From: a phage
Direction: 5' to 3' (one strand)
Length of the DNA stretch: 64,000 bases
Assembly (NCBI GenBank): GCA_017686895.1
Contig: GCA_017686895.1_4521.1
Part shown: in pieces, positions 11,649-20,949 of the stretch
How the letters are laid out: every line of letters begins with the position of its first letter
Numbering within the stretch: position 1 is the stretch's first letter
Made by a program: the position numbers and the translations under genes
Notes under the pieces: generated by a model
Database searches by the model: none
Seen by the model: the letters and a program-made list of their open reading frames with translations, nothing else
What the model was told of the DNA's origin: nothing

Positions 11649-14360
11649 ATGAAAGAATTTTACTTAACGGTTGAACAGATTGGTGATTCAATTTTTGAAC
11701 GTTACATCGATTCTAATGGCCGTGAACGTACTCGTGAAGTAGAATATAAACCATCACTGTTTGCTCATTGTCCAGAAAGTCAGGCTACGAAATATTTCGA
11801 TATCTACGGTAAGCCGTGTACTCGTAAGTTGTTCGCTAATATGCGTGATGCCTCCCAATGGATTAAACGCATGGAAGATATCGGACTTGAAGCACTTGGC
11901 ATGGACGATTTCAAATTGGCGTATTTGTCTGACACTTATAACTATGAAATCAAATACGACCATACAAAAATTCGTGTGGCTAACTTCGACATCGAAGTAA
12001 CATCTCCGGATGGGTTCCCTGAGCCGTCACAAGCAAAACATCCAATTGATGCTATCACCCATTATGACTCAATTGATGACAGGTTCTACGTATTTGATCT
12101 ATTGAATTCTCCATATGGTAATGTAGAAGAATGGTCTATTGAAATCGCTGCTAAGCTTCAAGAACAAGGTGGTGATGAAGTTCCATCTGAAATTATCGAT
12201 AAAATCATTTATATGCCATTCGATAATGAAAAAGAATTGTTGATGGAATATCTCAACTTCTGGCAACAGAAAACTCCTGTCATTTTGACTGGATGGAACG
12301 TTGAGTCATTTGATATTCCATATGTGTATAACCGAATCAAGAATATTTTTGGCGAATCTACTGCGAAACGTTTATCACCACATCGTAAAACTCGTGTTAA
12401 AGTTATCGAAAACATGTATGGTTCTCGTGAAATCATTACATTGTTCGGTATCTCTGTTCTTGATTATATCGACCTTTACAAAAAATTCTCTTTCACAAAC
12501 CAACCGTCGTATTCTCTGGATTACATTTCAGAATTTGAATTGAATGTCGGTAAACTGAAATATGACGGTCCTATTTCTAAACTTCGTGAAAGTAATCACC
12601 AACGATATATTTCTTATAACATTATCGACGTGTATCGTGTATTGCAAATTGATGCTAAACGCCAGTTCATCAACTTGAGTTTGGACATGGGTTATTATGC
12701 TAAGATACAGATTCAATCTGTGTTTAGCCCAATTAAAACATGGGATGCTATTATTTTTAATAGCCTTAAAGAGCAGAACAAGGTGATTCCACAAGGTCGT
12801 TCTCACCCGGTTCAACCTTATCCTGGCGCTTTTGTTAAGGAACCTATTCCAAATCGATACAAATATGTAATGAGTTTCGACCTTACATCTCTGTATCCAA
12901 GTATTATTCGCCAAGTGAATATTAGCCCAGAAACAATAGCAGGAACGTTTAAAGTAGCTCCATTGCATGATTATATTAACGCAATCGCTGAACGTCCTTC
13001 AGATGTGTACAGTTGCTCTCCTAACGGCATGATGTATTATAAAGACCGTGACGGTGTAGTTCCAACCGAAATCACCAAGGTCTTTAATCAACGTAAAGAA
13101 CATAAAGGTTATATGCTTGCTGCTCAACGTAACGGTGAAATAATTAAAGAGGCATTGCATAATCCTAATCTTTCTGTTGATGAACCATTAGATGTTGATT
13201 ATCGTTTCGACTTCACTGACGAGATTAAAGAAAAGATTAAAAAGTTGTCTGCTAAATCTCTTAATGAAATGTTGTTTAGAGCTCAACGTACTGAAGTTGC
13301 AGGTATGACTGCCCAAATTAACCGTAAATTGCTCATCAACTCGCTTTATGGTGCACTTGGCAACGTTTGGTTCCGTTATTACGATTTGCGTAATGCTACT
13401 GCAATCACAACATTTGGTCAAATGGCTTTACAATGGATTGAACGTAAAGTTAATGAATATCTGAATGAAGTTTGTGGTACAGAAGGTGAAGCTTTCGTTC
13501 TTTATGGTGATACAGACTCTATTTACGTATCTGCTGATAAAATTATCGATAAGGTTGGTGAATCTAAATTCCGTGATACCAACCATTGGGTAGACTTCTT
13601 AGATAAGTTCGCACGTGAACGTATGGAACCAGCTATTGATAAAGGTTTCCGTGAAATGTGTGAATACATGAACAATAAACAACACTTAATGTTCATGGAC
13701 CGAGAAGCTATCGCTGGTCCTCCGCTTGGTTCTAAAGGTATTGGTGGATTCTGGACTGGTAAGAAACGTTATGCATTAAACGTGTGGGATATGGAAGGAA
13801 CTAGATACGCTGAGCCTAAACTCAAAATCATGGGTCTAGAGACTCAGAAATCTTCGACCCCTAAAGCAGTACAGAAAGCTCTTAAAGAATGTATTCGTCG
13901 TATGCTTCAAGAAGGTGAAGAATCATTACAAGAATATTTTAAAGAGTTTGAAAAAGAATTCCGTCAATTGAATTATATTAGCATCGCGTCGGTATCTTCT
14001 GCGAATAACATTGCTAAATATGATGTAGGTGGATTCCCTGGTCCTAAATGTCCGTTCCATATTCGTGGAATTCTGACATATAACCGAGCTATCAAAGGTA
14101 ATATTGATGCTCCACAAGTTGTAGAAGGTGAAAAAGTATATGTTCTGCCTTTACGTGAAGGAAACCCATTCGGTGATAAATGTATCGCATGGCCTTCTGG
14201 TACTGAAATCACAGATTTAATTAAAGACGACGTACTTCATTGGATGGACTACACTGTTCTCCTTGAGAAGACATTTATTAAACCACTTGAAGGATTCACA
14301 TCAGCAGCGAAACTCGATTACGAGAAGAAAGCATCTCTGTTCGATATGTTCGATTTTTGA
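11649..14360 (+). CDS. 43: DNA polymerase gp43 (family B)
   Basis: MKEFYLTVEQIGDSIFERYIDSNGRERTREVEY matches T4 gp43; exo motif FDIE and pol motif YGDTDS present; 903 aa, uninterrupted. Confidence 0.95.
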   Translation: MKEFYLTVEQIGDSIFERYIDSNGRERTREVEYKPSLFAHCPESQATKYFDIYGKPCTRKLFANMRDASQWIKRMEDIGLEALGMDDFKLAYLSDTYNYEIKYDHTKIRVANFDIEVTSPDGFPEPSQAKHPIDAITHYDSIDDRFYVFDLLNSPYGNVEEWSIEIAAKLQEQGGDEVPSEIIDKIIYMPFDNEKELLMEYLNFWQQKTPVILTGWNVESFDIPYVYNRIKNIFGESTAKRLSPHRKTRVKVIENMYGSREIITLFGISVLDYIDLYKKFSFTNQPSYSLDYISEFELNVGKLKYDGPISKLRESNHQRYISYNIIDVYRVLQIDAKRQFINLSLDMGYYAKIQIQSVFSPIKTWDAIIFNSLKEQNKVIPQGRSHPVQPYPGAFVKEPIPNRYKYVMSFDLTSLYPSIIRQVNISPETIAGTFKVAPLHDYINAIAERPSDVYSCSPNGMMYYKDRDGVVPTEITKVFNQRKEHKGYMLAAQRNGEIIKEALHNPNLSVDEPLDVDYRFDFTDEIKEKIKKLSAKSLNEMLFRAQRTEVAGMTAQINRKLLINSLYGALGNVWFRYYDLRNATAITTFGQMALQWIERKVNEYLNEVCGTEGEAFVLYGDTDSIYVSADKIIDKVGESKFRDTNHWVDFLDKFARERMEPAIDKGFREMCEYMNNKQHLMFMDREAIAGPPLGSKGIGGFWTGKKRYALNVWDMEGTRYAEPKLKIMGLETQKSSTPKAVQKALKECIRRMLQEGEESLQEYFKEFEKEFRQLNYISIASVSSANNIAKYDVGGFPGPKCPFHIRGILTYNRAIKGNIDAPQVVEGEKVYVLPLREGNPFGDKCIAWPSGTEITDLIKDDVLHWMDYTVLLEKTFIKPLEGFTSAAKLDYEKKASLFDMFDF

Positions 14361-14400: not shown

Positions 14401-15036
14401 ATGAAAACTACACCAATCACTATCGCTATTGACGCAATCGTAAAACAAGCTTCTTCTTTGGCTACTATGGCCAAAGTAATTAGTCAAAACCCTGCTCGTT
14501 ATAATGCTATTCTAGAAACTCTTCGACGCCCTGGACTGAGTAATTATGAAAGCCGAGTAATTATTACAGGTGTTGGTAAGAACGCTAATATCGCAACTAA
14601 AGCTTCCGAGACTTTTGCTTCACTAGGTATTCCTAGCATGTATTTGAACACCGGGCATTATTCTCATGGCGACGCAGGGTTTATTGCACCTAATGATGTA
14701 TTAGTTCACATCAGTCGTTCTGGTAAGACTGAAGAAATGATAGGTGTTGCTAAACATCTTCGTATGATTCGTCCTCAGGTTAAACAGATTCTGTTACATT
14801 GTAACCCTGACATTCCGCAAGAATACGAAGCTCTTTTTGATTATACGTTCTGTACAGGCATCGCGGTAGAGGTTGATGAGAATTCTCTGGCTCCGACCAT
14901 GTCCACTACATTGTTGTTAGCGCTTATCGATACGTTTGCTATCAACCTTTCGTCTGAACGTGGATTTACCTCTAATGACTTCCTTAAGTTCCACCCTGGT
15001 GGTGCACTAGGTGCCATGTTACGAGGCGAACAATGA
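14401..15036 (+). CDS. SIS-domain sugar-phosphate isomerase, arabinose-5-phosphate isomerase (KdsD/GutQ)-like
   Basis: Motifs ETFASLGIP, HGDAGF, ISRSGKT resemble KdsD SIS domain; no CBS domains. Confidence 0.7.
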   Translation: MKTTPITIAIDAIVKQASSLATMAKVISQNPARYNAILETLRRPGLSNYESRVIITGVGKNANIATKASETFASLGIPSMYLNTGHYSHGDAGFIAPNDVLVHISRSGKTEEMIGVAKHLRMIRPQVKQILLHCNPDIPQEYEALFDYTFCTGIAVEVDENSLAPTMSTTLLLALIDTFAINLSSERGFTSNDFLKFHPGGALGAMLRGEQ

Positions 15037-15176
15037 AAGCAATAACAATAGGACTTTTACTATTGATGCTTGTCATGACTATCTACTGGAGCTTAACGGC
15101 TCCAGTAATGATTCCGACTCTTATAATCGGATGGATTATGATTGGACTACAAACAAAGTATGAATGCTTTAACTAG
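15033..15176 (+). CDS. small hydrophobic membrane peptide
   Basis: 47-aa ORF hand-translated (MKAITIGLLLLMLVMTIYW...); ATGA overlap with upstream stop; below track cut-off. Confidence 0.25.
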   Translation: MKAITIGLLLLMLVMTIYWSLTAPVMIPTLIIGWIMIGLQTKYECFN

Positions 15177-15217: not shown

Positions 15218-16903
15218 ATGAAAAAAGCTGTTATTCTTGGTGCTGGACTGGCAACTCGTTTGTATCCAATAACGCACCATATTCCTAAGGTGCTTGTTAA
15301 CTATAAACAAGACACTATTCTGAGCAATTTGTATACAATTTATTCTGACCTTGGTGCAGATGAAATTATTGTAGTAGTTCATTCAAAATTTGTTGAAACT
15401 GTTCGAGCTTATTGTGAGCAAGAAGGGTTCAATGTGACTATTCGTACAGTTGATGAAGCGTATGGTTCTGCTTATGCTCTTGCTAAATTATACAAAGATT
15501 TAGATGGCCATAACGTAATTGTTAACTGGTGTGATATTATTCCTGATTTTGGTTCATGGTCTTGGAATGTTAACGCAATCTATGTTAAGGGTGATGAATG
15601 TCGATATAATTTCGATGGTGAAAATATCACTAACGTAGGTTCAACAGGCGGTAATGTTGTAGGAATTTATCAGTTCAAAGACTGGGAATTCTATATGGGT
15701 TCTACTGATGAGGAAATTCATGAATACTGCAAAGGGCGTGATTTCGTAGAATTCCTTTACGGCAGTGCATTCAATAAATCAGAGCTTATGAATCTAATTG
15801 ATTTAGGTGATATGCCTAAACTTGAAAAAGCTCATGAAGTTCGTGAACTTAATCGTAGTTTTAATGCAGTTGAAATTGGTGAAGAAACTGTAACTAAATT
15901 CGCATTAACCGAACAGGGACGAGCTCTTCAGAAAGATGAGATTTCGTGGTATCTTAAAGTGAAATCAGATTCAGTTCCTCAGTTAGTTTCTGTTAATGAA
16001 AATAACTTTGAAATGGAACGCATTAAAGGTAAGCCAGCATTTGAATATATTAAATCCAAATCAAGTCTTGCTCGTCCACAAATTGTTGATGCAATTTTAG
16101 ATGCACTGAAATTCAGCACAGACACTTATTTTGTAAGTCCTGAAACTGTTCGTCGTGATTTCACTAAAGAATTCTATACGAAAGTTATTGATCGTTGTGA
16201 AAGCATTCAACCATTGATTGATTCATTTGGTAAAATCACACATGTGAACTACACTAAGATTGGACGTCTGAAGCCAATGCTGAAACAAGCTTTAGAACAC
16301 CTTATTCGTTATCATAACCGTTCTCAGGGACAGTACTCTGTTATTCATGGTGACCCGAACTTCAGTAATACTATGATTACTGATAACGGCGAAGTCAAGT
16401 TTATCGACCCTCGTGGATATTTTGGCGAAACCAAGATTTACGGGCCAAAATTGTACGATGAAGCTAAAGTGCTTTATGCTGTTTCAGGTTATGATGAATT
16501 CAATGCTAATCCGACCTGGGGACAGTTTACTATTGATGAAACAACTTGTAATGTGACTATTAACATCAATCCATTAATTTACAAATATGGAAAGATGAGT
16601 TCGTTTAACGAGTATCATCATTTGGCGGTGGCAATTATCTGGATTGCATTAGGTGGTTATTTCAAGAATAATCCACTTAAAGCGGTAGCCGCATATTATA
16701 AAGGTATGGAACTTCTGACTAAGCAATTACGCAACATGGGCCGTGTACTTCAAGACGGCTCTATTAGTTATGACGTAGCAGAACCTGTAACGGCTACTCT
16801 GATTACAAAAAATCCTGGTAAATGGGTACTAACTGATAAAGAAACTGGTGTTTCCTATCGTCCAATCGGTGGCGATATCACTCATCAATGGGAACGAATC
16901 TAA
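15218..16903 (+). CDS. bifunctional sugar-1-phosphate nucleotidyltransferase / anomeric sugar kinase-like protein
   Basis: N-term AVILGAGLATRL...PK nucleotidyltransferase signature; C-term HGDPNFSN...IDPRG resembles APH/choline-kinase catalytic loop. Confidence 0.65.
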   Translation: MKKAVILGAGLATRLYPITHHIPKVLVNYKQDTILSNLYTIYSDLGADEIIVVVHSKFVETVRAYCEQEGFNVTIRTVDEAYGSAYALAKLYKDLDGHNVIVNWCDIIPDFGSWSWNVNAIYVKGDECRYNFDGENITNVGSTGGNVVGIYQFKDWEFYMGSTDEEIHEYCKGRDFVEFLYGSAFNKSELMNLIDLGDMPKLEKAHEVRELNRSFNAVEIGEETVTKFALTEQGRALQKDEISWYLKVKSDSVPQLVSVNENNFEMERIKGKPAFEYIKSKSSLARPQIVDAILDALKFSTDTYFVSPETVRRDFTKEFYTKVIDRCESIQPLIDSFGKITHVNYTKIGRLKPMLKQALEHLIRYHNRSQGQYSVIHGDPNFSNTMITDNGEVKFIDPRGYFGETKIYGPKLYDEAKVLYAVSGYDEFNANPTWGQFTIDETTCNVTININPLIYKYGKMSSFNEYHHLAVAIIWIALGGYFKNNPLKAVAAYYKGMELLTKQLRNMGRVLQDGSISYDVAEPVTATLITKNPGKWVLTDKETGVSYRPIGGDITHQWERI

Positions 16904-17289
16904 TGCACCGTGTAGAAAACATGCTTAATCTTTGTTTTGATGTCGATGATTGTATAACAGAGTGGAATAACAATCGTGATTACGTGAACTTCAAACCAGA
17001 CGTCGAAATGGTGTCTGCCATTAATGCCCTGTATGATGCAGGGCATACCATAACGCTTTACACTGCTCGTGGTATGAAGTCAGTAGGTCCTGGTCGTATA
17101 GCAATTGACATTCTCCCAAGTCTGATTCAGAACTTGGCAAACATTGGCTTGAAGTACCATAATTTGCTAACACATAAACCAGTATATGATTGGATTATCG
17201 ACGACAAAGCTATGCGTCCTGACGAATTCAAAGCTCTTATGAATAAAGGCGAATTCGAAACATTTAAATCATATAAACCGAATCTATAA
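16903..17289 (+). CDS. HAD-superfamily phosphatase-like protein
   Basis: FDVDDCIT (DxD motif I), LYTARG, WIIDDK; start taken at ATG overlapping upstream stop. Confidence 0.45.
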   Translation: MHRVENMLNLCFDVDDCITEWNNNRDYVNFKPDVEMVSAINALYDAGHTITLYTARGMKSVGPGRIAIDILPSLIQNLANIGLKYHNLLTHKPVYDWIIDDKAMRPDEFKALMNKGEFETFKSYKPNL

Positions 17290-17335: not shown

Positions 17336-18505
17336 ATGCAAAAAATGAATACTTTTAAAATCGGAACGAATTTTGATTTAGCTCTTCTTGATAAAATCGT
17401 AGAGCTCAATAAAACCTATCCTAATAGCTTGATAAACGAAGTATATGGCTCTACAAGAGAAATGGCTTTTGTAGCAGCCAGACCTGATTTTAGGCTTCCT
17501 GACGTTGACAAAAAGATGTTAGAAGATTACGTTAAACGTTGTAACGAATTAGGTATTTGCTTTAACTATACACTCAACACGATAAATCCTGGTTCAAAAA
17601 GAGAACTAGTTGAGTGGAAGAAGAAAGCTATTCAGGATTATGTTCAGTATCTTTGGTCAATAGGCGTATGGCGTATTACTATCGCTAACCCTGTTGTTAT
17701 GGAAATTGTTCGTGAAGTCAATAAAGATATTGAGATTGAAGTTTCAACAATTCTACATGTCGATGCGGTAACTCAAATCAAATACTTACATGACCAATAT
17801 AACATCAAAAAGGTCTGTTGCGGAATTCATAAGAACCGTTCAGTTTCTTTCCTGAAGCGTGCAGCAGAGTTTTGCAATAAGAACAATATAATATTTGAAG
17901 TTCTTGTAAATGAGTTCTGTTCTAATGCTGGTAAAGGGTATACAACACATTGTAGTTATCGTGACTCTTGCTATATTTTCCATAGTACTGATGTTACAGC
18001 TGATGATGCTAAATCCTTAAATGGATATCCAATGCAACACTGCATTAAAGCTCGTGATACAGACCCATTTAACTGGTTGAGAACTCGTTTTGTTCGTCCT
18101 CAAGATTTGAAACTTTATAATGATATTGGTATCACTCAATTCAAAGTTTCAGGACGTACAGGTAGCACAGACTACATTTTGAAAGTTCTTGAAGCATACG
18201 CTTCTGAAAAGTTTGAAGGTAATTTGTTAGAACTGTGGAAGCCTTTAGAGACTATTTTCACTCTTGAAAATGAGACTGAGTTTTCACATACAGTAAATAT
18301 TGAAACCTCTTTGTTAGATGGCTTTTTAGAAAAAAGGTGGTTCAGACATCCAGATTTTGATTGTGCTAATGAAATCTGTGGGTCAACGTGTACATATTGT
18401 GAAAGGTATTATAAACGTCAATTATCTAAAAACGGGTTAGCAGAAAACTCCATATCTATTATTGATATAACTAACTCTGATGACGCTTTGAGGTACCCGG
18501 AATGA
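17336..18505 (+). CDS. peptidase-U32-family-like Fe-S protein
   Basis: N-terminal layout and Cys-rich EFCSNAGKGYTTHCSYRDSC segment resemble U32 family; C-terminal CxxxCxxC cluster. Confidence 0.5.
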   Translation: MQKMNTFKIGTNFDLALLDKIVELNKTYPNSLINEVYGSTREMAFVAARPDFRLPDVDKKMLEDYVKRCNELGICFNYTLNTINPGSKRELVEWKKKAIQDYVQYLWSIGVWRITIANPVVMEIVREVNKDIEIEVSTILHVDAVTQIKYLHDQYNIKKVCCGIHKNRSVSFLKRAAEFCNKNNIIFEVLVNEFCSNAGKGYTTHCSYRDSCYIFHSTDVTADDAKSLNGYPMQHCIKARDTDPFNWLRTRFVRPQDLKLYNDIGITQFKVSGRTGSTDYILKVLEAYASEKFEGNLLELWKPLETIFTLENETEFSHTVNIETSLLDGFLEKRWFRHPDFDCANEICGSTCTYCERYYKRQLSKNGLAENSISIIDITNSDDALRYPE

Positions 18506-18783: not shown

Positions 18784-19500
18784 ATGGGAAAACATAACAC
18801 AATGAAATATATCAAAGCCGCAGATTTTCAAACCGCATTTAAAGCAGTCAATCGTGAAATTTTAGAAAACCCCGAATTCGTAACTGATTCTCGTATTGGA
18901 CGTTGTAATGAAATTGGGTCTATGACAGTAGTTGTTGACACTCCATCATCATTCAAAATGACCGACCCACGTATTAACCGCATCTCTTATGAATATGCCG
19001 AAGACTTCTGGAAGTTTATGATTTCTGGTGGTACCAACGCAGAAGAAGCGTTTAAGGCATATCCTAATGTCGCTAAATTTATTTCTAAACCAAAATCAGA
19101 TGTTTTGCCGGCGAACTTCAACACTTTCTATGGTCCTCGCATTGCGGCCCAATTACCAACTCTTCTAAAAGAACTTAAAGAAAAACCTAACTCTCGAAGA
19201 GTTGTGTTCCAAATTCTAGAAAGTTCTGATCAGGCTTTGCTTGATTCGGACGAAACACTTGAATATCCATGTACTGACTCAGTAACTTATTATATTCGTG
19301 ATGGTAAGCTTTATACCCACTGTCATATGCGTTCTCAGAACTGTGCTGTTGTTATGCAGTTGGATTTTTATCTCCAAGGAAAATTACTTCATTATATCGC
19401 TAACGAATGCGGTGTAGAAGTTGGTGATTATACTCATACCATGGTAAGTGCCCATGTGTTTGAACGTGATTTTGATTATGTTAAAGGATTCCTTGACTAA
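18784..19500 (+). CDS. thymidylate-synthase-family pyrimidine hydroxymethylase (gene 42-like dCMP hydroxymethylase)
   Basis: PCTDSV and HCHMRSQN resemble TS-family catalytic Cys and (Q/M)RS motifs; position and dCTPase at 29023 support hmC synthesis; divergent from T4 gp42. Confidence 0.65.
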   Translation: MGKHNTMKYIKAADFQTAFKAVNREILENPEFVTDSRIGRCNEIGSMTVVVDTPSSFKMTDPRINRISYEYAEDFWKFMISGGTNAEEAFKAYPNVAKFISKPKSDVLPANFNTFYGPRIAAQLPTLLKELKEKPNSRRVVFQILESSDQALLDSDETLEYPCTDSVTYYIRDGKLYTHCHMRSQNCAVVMQLDFYLQGKLLHYIANECGVEVGDYTHTMVSAHVFERDFDYVKGFLD

Positions 19501-20399
19501 TGGCTATTTTCCGCGTACCAATCTTGAGTATGCGGTCTTATGAAACTGGACAGTATGCTATCCTTAAGGATGGCAACTTCCAACTTCATTTGCACCGTGC
19601 TAATCCAGGTGATGTGATTACATATCCACGTAATGCATCTGATATTAAAGAATGCGAACGTCTTTTCCCAGAATTTAAGTTTGTTCCATTATGGTATAAA
19701 GATAACGCGTATAACACTCGTAAATATTTCTGGTCTGAAAATGAATTTGTGGTTGATTCATTAATTGCTTATTATGATTGTGATTTTCTAATCACAGATA
19801 TCACCGGATATGACGGCGCTTTTGATGTGGAATTCAATTTCAATATCACTGCAGACCCTAATAAACCACGTTTTTATATTGACGAATTCTTAAAAACTGA
19901 TATGTTGTCGGTTAATCGTTCACTTCAAACTACTGTGTTGAATGAACGTCAAAAAGAAGTGCTGGTTAACGCAGGTGCAGATGGTAATAAGATTATCGTA
20001 ACGCAGAAAGTTATACGTCCTTCCATCATGCAGCGTCTTGTAGGTGATTTGGCTCCTATTCATCTAGATGGTATTTTTCATCCATTTCGAATTAGTGACC
20101 CGTGCTATCGTTTTGAACAAGTGGTTGAATGTGCAATTCAATTAGGCCAACCGCTTTATATAACCGATCCAAATAATAGCTTCGACAGAAATAAGTATCC
20201 TGAAGAAGCATTGATTCGAATTTTTAAACCAACTAAAACTGAGTACTATCAAATTCTTAAAGGACGTCCGAAGATTCAATATTTCGAAAATCCTGAAGAA
20301 GTATTCCATCCAGGTCTTGGTGAGTTCATCTACTTTAATGCTTTAATTTCTTCGCCGTATAATATACCTAAATATGAAGATGTCGTAATCGAGGAATAA
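19500..20399 (+). CDS. hypothetical protein at the T4 beta-gt position
   Basis: 299-aa ORF between 42-like and uvsX; no recognisable motif. Confidence 0.45.
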   Translation: MAIFRVPILSMRSYETGQYAILKDGNFQLHLHRANPGDVITYPRNASDIKECERLFPEFKFVPLWYKDNAYNTRKYFWSENEFVVDSLIAYYDCDFLITDITGYDGAFDVEFNFNITADPNKPRFYIDEFLKTDMLSVNRSLQTTVLNERQKEVLVNAGADGNKIIVTQKVIRPSIMQRLVGDLAPIHLDGIFHPFRISDPCYRFEQVVECAIQLGQPLYITDPNNSFDRNKYPEEALIRIFKPTKTEYYQILKGRPKIQYFENPEEVFHPGLGEFIYFNALISSPYNIPKYEDVVIEE

Positions 20400-20400
20400 A

Positions 20401-20949
20401 ATGGCTAAAATTATTTTAGTAGATGGCCCGGATAATGCTGGTAAAACAACTTTCATTAATGACATAATGGAAATTAGTGAAAGATATGTAAAGATTGATT
20501 TCCCTAAACGAACAGTTGATGGACGTTTCGATGTTAAGTCTCGAAATGAAGTTGGCTGTTTCGAAACTATGTTGAATTATTTAGACCCTACTAAGATTTA
20601 TCTATTAGACCGTGGATATATTAGTAACTGGGTTTATGGACGTATTCGACAAGATGCGGACTCGGTTCTTGACGTTTATGAACAGGATTATGTTCGTCTT
20701 TGCCAAAACCATGATGTGTTCACAATTATTTTAACACGTAACGAAATGACTGAAAGTTTTGAAGACGACCTTATTACTTTGTCTTCATTCGGTTTTAATA
20801 CAGTAATTTCACATTTTGAAGAGTTTGCAATTCATAACGAAATCCAAACGTATCAATTACTTAATCATGATGGTGCTAACAAAGTTATAGGATTTAATGC
20901 AAGCGAACGTAATAATTTGATTACAGAAATCATCAAATGGGCTCGTTAA
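20401..20949 (+). CDS. P-loop nucleoside/nucleotide kinase-like protein
   Basis: Walker A GPDNAGKTT and LDRGY motif resemble thymidylate/dNMP kinase fold. Confidence 0.5.
   Translation: MAKIILVDGPDNAGKTTFINDIMEISERYVKIDFPKRTVDGRFDVKSRNEVGCFETMLNYLDPTKIYLLDRGYISNWVYGRIRQDADSVLDVYEQDYVRLCQNHDVFTIILTRNEMTESFEDDLITLSSFGFNTVISHFEEFAIHNEIQTYQLLNHDGANKVIGFNASERNNLITEIIKWAR

Follow-up and report, generated by a model that had tools for sequence, protein, structure and literature searches.

A fused nucleotidyltransferase-kinase of an RB69-like phage as a probable bifunctional enzyme of the UDP-D-arabinofuranose pathway

Introduction

Which sugar, and by which route, would a phage activate with a protein that joins a sugar-1-phosphate nucleotidyltransferase (NTase) and a kinase of the APH/choline-kinase type in one chain? 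This question is raised by the open reading frame (ORF) at 15218..16903 (+) in a 64,000-nucleotide stretch of phage DNA (GenBank assembly GCA_017686895.1, contig GCA_017686895.1_4521.1), which was analysed as a whole and is referred to as the window. An original prediction, made from the letters alone, compared the encoded protein (hereafter, the target) with salvage pairs such as AmgK/MurU or LicA/LicC, and proposed the activation of a free sugar or alcohol at its anomeric position, followed by nucleotidylation. From the evidence discussed below, the target is very probably the Mosigvirus ortholog of RB69 ORF53_52c, itself equated with AfhE of coliphage HY126, and a bifunctional enzyme of the uridine diphosphate (UDP)-D-arabinofuranose pathway. 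The gene is already known, as it has been discussed since 2018, was modelled as bifunctional in 2025-2026 and has been assayed in a near-identical phage.

A single uninterrupted gene

The target ORF runs from ATG to TAA, encodes 561 amino acids with a predicted mass of 63.9 kDa and is preceded by a GAGGA Shine-Dalgarno sequence 7 nt 5' of the start codon. The opposite strand contains no ORF of at least 80 amino acids (the longest, of 62 amino acids, lies at the 5' edge), there are no Rfam matches within the ORF and the repeat search returned short chance repeats only, while a promoter and terminator scan gave sites no more numerous than in shuffled sequence.

When the 4.1-kb cluster that contains the target is compared with phage records, it is 95-99% identical in 153 of them, all RB69-like Mosigvirus. 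At the protein level, the target shares 558 of 561 residues with the corrected RB69 ORF53_52c (gp52:53; extra C removed), and the three substitutions (V59A, Q233H and I454V) spare all conserved positions. The 25 nucleotide differences between both copies yield only these three amino acid changes, which indicates purifying selection. The Bas46 counterpart differs at 5 residues, and phrog_4098, which PHROGs labels as of unknown function, matches the target over residues 1-561 (E 5.5e-294).

The need for a corrected RB69 sequence stems from its GenBank record (L006, NC_004928), where one extra C at the equivalent of window position 15871 (codon 218) breaks the gene up into two ORFs, ORF053c and ORF052c. 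Thomas et al. 2018 (PMC6024577) re-sequenced the region and traced this same extra C to a sequencing error, so that RB69 ORF53_52c is one product of 561 residues and 63.9 kDa, which they considered a candidate for UDP-arabinose synthesis. In the window the reading frame is intact at codon 218, and the BFVD models of the two RB69 halves superpose on the target with template modelling (TM) scores of 0.95-0.96. The two-gene reading was rejected on account of the intact frame and of the documented single-base error in RB69.

The nucleotidyltransferase domain

The N-terminal domain carries the glycine-rich signature AVILGAGLATRL at amino acids 4-15 (15227..15262), followed by PK at amino acids 23-24. 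The target passes the Pfam NTP_transferase model (PF00483; E 3.7e-9, 37 bits against a cut-off of 21.2), which is also matched by 31 of 40 homologs. Conservation was read from an alignment of 40 sequences with identities as low as 29%, in which G10 and R14 of the loop G8-x-G10-x-x-x-R14, as well as K24, D106, D195 and D198, are invariant; the lysine would be catalytic, and the aspartates would have metal or sugar-phosphate roles.

Profile and structure comparisons agree on the fold of this domain. A family profile built from the 40 homologs finds HddC (6.3e-14) and LicC (1.1e-11) in the PDB, as well as GDP-mannose pyrophosphorylases, and Foldseek retrieves RmlA (4ecm, 9.6e-9) together with LicC (1jyl), MurU (4y7t/u) and HddC (5xhw). 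The fold is GT-A and Rossmann-like, with E-values of 1e-8 to 1e-7 and target TM scores of 0.62-0.72 to 4ecm, 1jyl, 4y7t and 2xme. All of the top 50 Foldseek matches in the PDB are nucleotidyltransferases, except APH(2'')-IIa (3ham, rank 37), which aligns to the kinase domain.

The kinase domain and the C-terminal extension

The second domain shows the bilobal kinase fold of the APH/choline-kinase family. Its two most recognisable motifs are HGDPNFSN, at amino acids 377-384 (16346..16369), and IDPRG, at amino acids 396-400 (16403..16417), so that the H-x-D-x4-N loop, the downstream metal-binding aspartate and the pair formed by the beta3 lysine and the alphaC glutamate are all present. Across the 40 sequences, K227, E241, G378, D379, N384, D397, P398, R399 and G400 never vary, while H377 is kept in 90% or more of them. 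The Pfam APH model (PF01636) is reached by 10 of the 40 homologs (best E 6.1e-10), and phrog_21938, a kinase-only phage family, matches amino acids 211-517 of the target. Fold matches, given here with PDB entry and match value, include glucosamine kinase (6hwj, 14.6), choline kinases (3dxq, 6yxs and 3mes, 14.1-14.4), maltokinase (5jy7, 14.3), 5-methylthioribose kinase (2pyw, 13.6), LicA (4r77, 13.2), APH(2'') (4dbx, 13.2) and NahK (4ocj, 11.6). Three of these, maltokinase, 5-methylthioribose kinase and NahK, are C1-specific sugar kinases. Seven basic residues of the domain (R213, K322, R326, R399, K417, K483 and K488) are also invariant, and such an abundance would suit an anionic substrate, which is suggestive at the level of sequence.

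These results bear out the architecture that had been predicted, a sugar-1-phosphate NTase followed by an APH/choline-kinase-type kinase in one polypeptide, through the Pfam NTP_transferase match, the kinase fold matches and the conserved motifs; the motifs that had been quoted lie exactly where they had been placed. The original prediction had named a C-terminal fold unlike that of kinases as grounds for giving it up; the matches to glucosamine kinase, choline kinases, maltokinase and LicA speak for a kinase. MurU, LicC and LicA, which it had invoked, are genuine structural relatives by fold. The order and existence of the domains stood, and their sizes did not: the NTase domain measures approximately 205 and not 150 amino acids, the kinase approximately 300 and not 250, and a tail of some 55 amino acids follows.

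Of the 40 aligned homologs, 25 carry this tail, which runs TKNPGKWVLTDKETG...QWERI, and shorter relatives (519-558 amino acids) lack it. It is predicted to form short beta-strands with somewhat lower confidence (predicted local distance difference test, pLDDT, 75-92). No function was found for it, and it is not mentioned in the RB69 and Thanatos literature surveyed. It is conceivable, albeit improbable, that the extension acts as a third functional element, for instance by docking the AfhF phosphatase or by oligomerisation, and passes the bisphosphate and arabinofuranose-1-phosphate between sites. If so, the NTase-kinase fusion would be a channelling device, which would explain why the second and fourth steps of the pathway described below are joined, instead of consecutive ones.

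A probable place in the UDP-D-arabinofuranose pathway

The ORF, both folds, the conservation of the motifs, orthology, synteny and gene-fusion links were established directly in this analysis; the substrates, the order of the steps and the use of UDP come from the literature, and the roles of individual residues are proposals. Lee et al. 2026 (PMC13326640) modelled RB69 gp52:53 as a MurU-like NTase joined to an APH-like kinase and equated it with HY126 AfhE. In their summary of He et al. 2026, AfhE is both a kinase of D-arabinose-5-phosphate and a pyrophosphorylase of UDP-D-arabinose, and AfhF works as a phosphatase. According to the same summary, the AfhE kinase converts D-arabinofuranose (Araf)-5-phosphate to the 1,5-bisphosphate and AfhF then takes off the 5-phosphate, the reported order being ribulose-5-phosphate, Araf-5-phosphate, Araf-1,5-bisphosphate, Araf-1-phosphate and UDP-Araf. 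The cytosines of RB69 are beta-D-Araf-(1,3)-alpha-D-Araf-5-hydroxy-dC, the base being 5-hydroxycytosine and not hydroxymethylcytosine, as once thought, and Bas46 DNA has been found experimentally to carry arabinosylated 5-hydroxy-C (PMC13326640).

The genes for a SIS-domain protein, the NTase-kinase and a HAD phosphatase are contiguous in the window, and the following mechanism is proposed for their products. The adjacent SIS isomerase would convert host ribulose-5-phosphate to D-arabinose-5-phosphate, which the target kinase domain would phosphorylate at C1 with adenosine triphosphate (ATP) to give Araf-1,5-bisphosphate. In this step, the catalytic base would be D379; N384 and D397 would coordinate Mg, and K227/E241 would form the pair that binds ATP. 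The downstream HAD phosphatase would then take off the 5-phosphate, and the RmlA/MurU/HddC-like NTase domain would form UDP-Araf from Araf-1-phosphate and uridine triphosphate (UTP). Finally, GT-B arabinosyltransferases would load arabinose onto the 5-hydroxycytosine of replicated phage DNA, where it would guard against restriction and CRISPR nucleases. By analogy with AfhE, the two domains of the target would thus perform two of the four steps of a de novo pathway, namely the second and the fourth, which are not consecutive. Because arabinose-5-phosphate cyclises only as a furanose, phosphorylation of C1 ahead of the removal of the 5-phosphate would fix the ring as the furanose that the DNA carries. 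UDP-D-arabinofuranose is not known as an ordinary metabolite of Enterobacteriaceae, and for this reason the phage must carry its own arabinose-activation pathway. The outcome matters to the phage, since arabinosylated 5-hydroxycytosine blocks restriction enzymes and CRISPR nucleases and alters the sensitivity to type IV systems.

Seen from this pathway, the original prediction was right about the chemistry and probably wrong about its setting. Phosphorylation of the anomeric carbon and later nucleotidylation agree with the AfhE literature as summarised in PMC13326640, and arabinose, the first sugar suggested for assay, is the right one (PMC6024577, PMC13326640). That a free sugar or alcohol is salvaged finds no support, given that the substrate of the AfhE kinase is, in that summary, Araf-5-phosphate made by the adjacent isomerase, and neither does the implied back-to-back action of kinase and NTase, between which a separate HAD phosphatase (AfhF) is reported to act.

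Weighing the alternatives

Several points weigh against the assignment of the target as an AfhE-type enzyme. The biochemistry of He et al. is available here second-hand, through Lee et al. 2026; the kinase and pyrophosphorylase activities are reported for AfhE only, those of the window protein being expected by analogy, and the orthology with HY126 AfhE is deduced from neighbouring proteins. The preference for UTP is not readable from the target sequence. The target kinase stays below threshold in Pfam (Fructosamin_kin, E 0.004 and 16.9 bits against 22.4; EcKL, E 0.007 and 16.1 bits against 22), and the family-profile search of the PDB detected the NTase domain and no kinase. Moreover, purified TH1_060, the ortholog from Shewanella phage Thanatos, produced no NDP (nucleoside diphosphate)-xylose from xylose-1-phosphate and five nucleoside triphosphates, and the same paper (PMC12838424) gives UDP-xylose pyrophosphorylase activity to the glycosyltransferase homolog TH1_063; the null result with xylose-1-phosphate may reflect sugar specificity. 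Lastly, Table 1 of PMC13326640 keeps another order of steps, with the entries 'dephosphorylates Araf5p to Ara' and 'phosphorylates Ara to Araf1p'. In such a route the HAD phosphatase would free D-arabinose (or the sugar would be scavenged), the kinase would act at C1 and the NTase straight after, as in AmgK/MurU. Joining two consecutive activities would be the simpler rationale for a fusion, and the fold relatives include anomeric kinases of free sugars (maltokinase and NahK) together with MurU and LicC/LicA. However, the main text of that paper, where it summarises He et al., has AfhE converting Araf-5-phosphate to the 1,5-bisphosphate and AfhF dephosphorylating it, and the NTase-kinase is constantly linked or fused to a SIS isomerase and a phosphatase, which speaks for synthesis de novo from ribulose-5-phosphate and not for scavenging. 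Free arabinose is, besides, mainly a pyranose, whereas the sugar in DNA is a furanose (PMC13326640 and general carbohydrate chemistry), and the invariant basic residues of the kinase, which are suggestive only, fit an anionic substrate. The free-sugar order is therefore regarded as unlikely.

Even less probable is a different product, in which the NTase would use cytidine, guanosine or deoxythymidine triphosphate (CTP, GTP or dTTP), or the pair would activate xylose, ribose, a deoxypentose or a choline-like alcohol. By sequence, the NTase is closest to HddC, which works with GTP, and to LicC, which works with CTP; the wording of Lee et al. is 'NDP-arabinose, potentially UDP-arabinose' (PMC13326640) and the authors of the Thanatos study read the sugar of that phage as a deoxypentose (PMC12838424). 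Against this stand the chemical identification of arabinose in RB69 DNA (PMC6024577, PMC13326640), as D-Araf by nuclear magnetic resonance, the KdsD/GutQ-like and arabinose-5-phosphate-specific nature of the adjacent isomerase, the resemblance of the cluster glycosyltransferases to UDP-sugar enzymes (PMC13326640) and the UDP-D-arabinose pyrophosphorylase activity of AfhE, as that paper relays it. As for the N-terminal GT-A-like domain being itself a DNA glycosyltransferase, with the kinase as an accessory, this early idea arose for ORF053c from a CDD match to 'glycosyltransferase family A' (PMC6024577) and was speculated for TH1_060, still listed as a glycosyltransferase candidate in the Thanatos paper (PMC12838424). 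It now retains next to no likelihood and was rejected on motifs and fold: the pyrophosphorylase signature G-x-G-x-x-x-R and K24 are in place, the Pfam NTP_transferase cut-off is passed and, leaving aside 3ham, the top 50 Foldseek matches in the PDB are nucleotidyltransferases. In addition, the cluster has separate genes for putative GT-B arabinosyltransferases (e.g. 19500..20399), and no DNA glycosylation by TH1_060 was seen in vitro (PMC12838424). The bifunctional AfhE-type enzyme of UDP-Araf synthesis is, accordingly, the reading under which the surrounding genes are described next.

The surrounding gene cluster

The cluster lies between the gene for the T4-family DNA polymerase gp43 (gene 43; 11649..14360) and uvsX, and RB69, Bas46 and CAU_ECP01 share its gene order. 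The features of the target and of its neighbours are collected in Table 1.

Table 1. Coordinates of the target, its parts and the neighbouring genes in the window.
Feature	Position	Strand	Basis or details
Whole ORF, bifunctional nucleotidyltransferase/kinase	15218..16903	+	Motifs, phrog_4098, RB69 match, literature
Sugar-1-phosphate nucleotidyltransferase, proposed Araf-1-phosphate uridylyltransferase	15218..15832	+	Amino acids 1-205
APH/choline-kinase-fold kinase, proposed D-arabinose-5-phosphate 1-kinase	15833..16732	+	Amino acids 206-505; K227, E241, H377-G-D379-x4-N384, D397-P-R-G400
Conserved C-terminal extension	16733..16900	+	Amino acids 506-561; ends ...TKNPGKWVLTDKETGVSYRPIGGDITHQWERI
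SIS-domain D-arabinose-5-phosphate isomerase (RB69 gp55 counterpart), ribulose-5-phosphate to arabinose-5-phosphate	14401..15036	+	SIS 8.2e-10
HAD-type phosphatase (RB69 gp51/AfhF counterpart), proposed Araf-1,5-bisphosphate 5-phosphatase	16903..17289	+	PDB 9iqw_A, TIGR01689
U32-family protein (RB69 gp50 counterpart)	17336..18505	+	Peptidase_U32 7.4e-11
Thymidylate-synthase homolog, 5-hydroxy-dCMP synthase (RB69 gp48 counterpart), makes the acceptor base	18784..19500	+	PF00303 1.9e-15
Putative first DNA arabinosyltransferase (RB69 gp46:47 counterpart), would use NDP-arabinose	19500..20399	+	phrog_3891 3.4e-156; assignment of Lee et al.
P-loop nucleotide-kinase-like protein (RB69 gp45 counterpart), cluster end before uvsX	20401..20949	+	Weak P-loop and dTMP-kinase matches

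Upstream of the target, the isomerase matches 3etn (9.6e-25), KdsD (2xhz, 2e-18) and KpsF/GutQ (8.8e-32). Between both genes there is a very hydrophobic ORF of 47 codons (MKAITIGLLLLMLVMTIYW...; 15033..15176, +), whose ATG overlaps the isomerase stop codon; it is labelled hypothetical in Bas46, its RB69 counterpart is the shorter ORF054c, and its product is possibly a small membrane protein. Downstream, the target stop codon overlaps the phosphatase ATG (16903) in a TAATG at 16901-16905, which suggests translational coupling of the two genes. A second in-frame ATG of the phosphatase is found at 16888, the annotated start in Bas46, while RB69 and CAU_ECP01 are annotated from 16903, the ATG at which the crystallised construct 9iqw begins (MHRVENM). 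The phosphatase is 100% identical to 9iqw_A over 128 amino acids, and matches 1xpj (5e-10) and TIGR01689 (3.8e-13) as well. The homolog of thymidylate synthase (ThyA) is close to 9iqc, 9ir2 and 9iqu (E 2.9e-160, ~97% identity). These four entries presumably stem from the HY126 work of He et al., a study with which their consecutive deposition fits, and such identities place the window phage, in effect, in one lineage with the phage that was characterised.

In the U32-family protein, a weak match to UbiU (E 9e-4) is accompanied by a C-terminal C-x4-C-x3-C-x2-C motif (Cys343/348/352/355), and the PDB contains no sequence relatives that could be found. The U32 family includes the oxygen-independent hydroxylases RlhA (5-hydroxycytidine in rRNA), TrhP and UbiU/V, and because of this the gene could, by analogy, provide an anaerobic route to 5-hydroxycytosine beside the oxygen- and flavin-dependent ThyA homolog. 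Table 1 of Lee et al. 2026 (PMC13326640) lists its counterpart as a 'sugar or heterocycle reductase' and draws no link to hydroxylases. Of the last two genes, the candidate arabinosyltransferase sits at the position of bas46_0141, and RB69 gp45 is thymidylate-kinase-like by structure (Lee et al. 2026, PMC13326640). On the scale of the whole window, the GC skew switches from positive to negative at ~52 kb and is near zero again past 60 kb; the switch probably marks a change in the transcription direction of gene blocks.

Relatives, fusions and annotation

Beyond the T4-like phages, proteins of 890-955 amino acids fuse HAD, SIS, NTase and kinase domains in this order (L003 8001-10781, P0084; L009 5545-8283, P0108; P0088, P0089, P0092 and P0091), which provides independent support for the linkage of the four-step pathway. 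The contigs that encode these fusions also carry MutS+HNH, Rpb2, RNA_pol_N, Autophagy_act_C, SNF2, a C48 Ulp1-type peptidase and asparagine synthase, and look giant-virus-like (Nucleocytoviricota). One copy of the fusion comes from a eukaryote transcriptome, and BFVD holds a relative of 635 amino acids in Indivirus ILV1. Giant viruses may make an NDP-arabinofuranose-like sugar. Among non-T4-like phages, NTase-kinase homologs that are 25-27% identical occur in Tenacibaculum phage PTm1 (L007, 6001-8939) and Enterococcus phage Planchet (L008, 4412-10421), where they adjoin a ThyA-like gene and glycosyltransferases, with no SIS genes annotated nearby. The adjacent phosphatase of PTm1 is annotated as a histidine phosphatase and not as a HAD protein, and it may be a non-orthologous replacement of the latter.

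Approximately 370 phage records carry the target gene, mostly as 'hypothetical protein'. Others bear wrong labels (records H36, H43, H59, P0032 and P0047), such as 'bifunctional protein GlmU', 'mannose-1-phosphate guanyltransferase', 'UDP-glucose dehydrogenase' or 'dCMP deaminase | homing endonuclease', the neighbouring phosphatase gene is widely mislabelled 'phosphoheptose isomerase', and GenBank, UniProt and BFVD keep the RB69 copy as two uncharacterised halves. The value of the present check is mainly curatorial, and it opens no new question about the target; the four-domain fusions, the U32 gene and the C-terminal tail may outweigh the finding on the target itself.

Comparison with known systems

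The closest parallel in pathway logic is heptose activation, which proceeds through GmhA (SIS), HldE or HddA (C1 kinase of a sugar phosphate), GmhB (HAD) and the C-terminal domain of HldE or HddC (NTase). The ADP- and GDP-heptose pathways follow the same four steps as the phage route, HldE also fuses the second and the fourth, and HddC, from GDP-heptose synthesis, ranks first among the PDB profile matches of the target's N-terminal domain. This likeness in logic and to HddC accounts for the labels 'phosphoheptose isomerase' and 'capsule biosynthesis' on neighbouring genes. The folds tell the systems apart, since the kinase is of the PfkB type in HldE, of the GHMP type in HddA and of the APH/ELK type in the target, and the HldE NTase has a cytidylyltransferase-type fold with a HIGH motif, not an RmlA-like one, in the opposite domain order. 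The PfkB-type kinase with a cytidylyltransferase-type NTase that characterises HldE is not what the target has, and its pathway also differs in the sugar, a pentofuranose, and in the acceptor, DNA.

The AmgK/MurU and LicA/LicC pairs share both folds with the target, an APH/choline-kinase-type kinase and a minimal RmlA-like NTase, although the fold matches include no PDB entry of AmgK, whose likeness does not come from a direct comparison. They are, however, separate proteins whose substrate, N-acetylmuramic acid (MurNAc) or choline, is unphosphorylated; their two steps follow each other directly, and neither a phosphatase nor an isomerase takes part. Orthology with these pairs fails on sequence: the MurU equivalog models score 23.4 bits (NF045761, cut-off 250) and 17.5 bits (NF045697, cut-off 370), no NCBIfam model reaches its cut-off for the target, and the target has neither the close sequence relationship nor the choline substrate that would mark LicA/LicC. 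Sugar-1-kinase and NDP-sugar pyrophosphorylase are found in one polypeptide in Fkp, the L-fucokinase/GDP-fucose pyrophosphorylase of Bacteroides, and in the arabino/fucokinase-pyrophosphorylases of Leishmania. The pyrophosphorylase of Fkp is N-terminal, as in the target; unlike the target, these enzymes have a GHMP-type kinase, perform true free-sugar salvage, produce GDP-sugars and handle arabinose as a pyranose.

The remaining comparisons are with arabinosylating T4-like phages. Acinetobacter phage DLP3 gp82 and Thanatos TH1_060 are full-length orthologs, 54-57% identical to the target, although more divergent and from hosts outside Enterobacteriaceae. DLP3 makes tri-arabinosyl and Thanatos mono-arabinosyl chains (PMC13326640), and TH1_060, which is 54% identical to the target, is essential for phage propagation (PMC12838424). 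A sequence search of the PDB found no solved AfhE chain. The nearest known system is RB69 ORF53_52c/gp52:53, equated with HY126 AfhE in PMC13326640, which has the same length, mass, position, neighbours and NTase-kinase architecture as the target.

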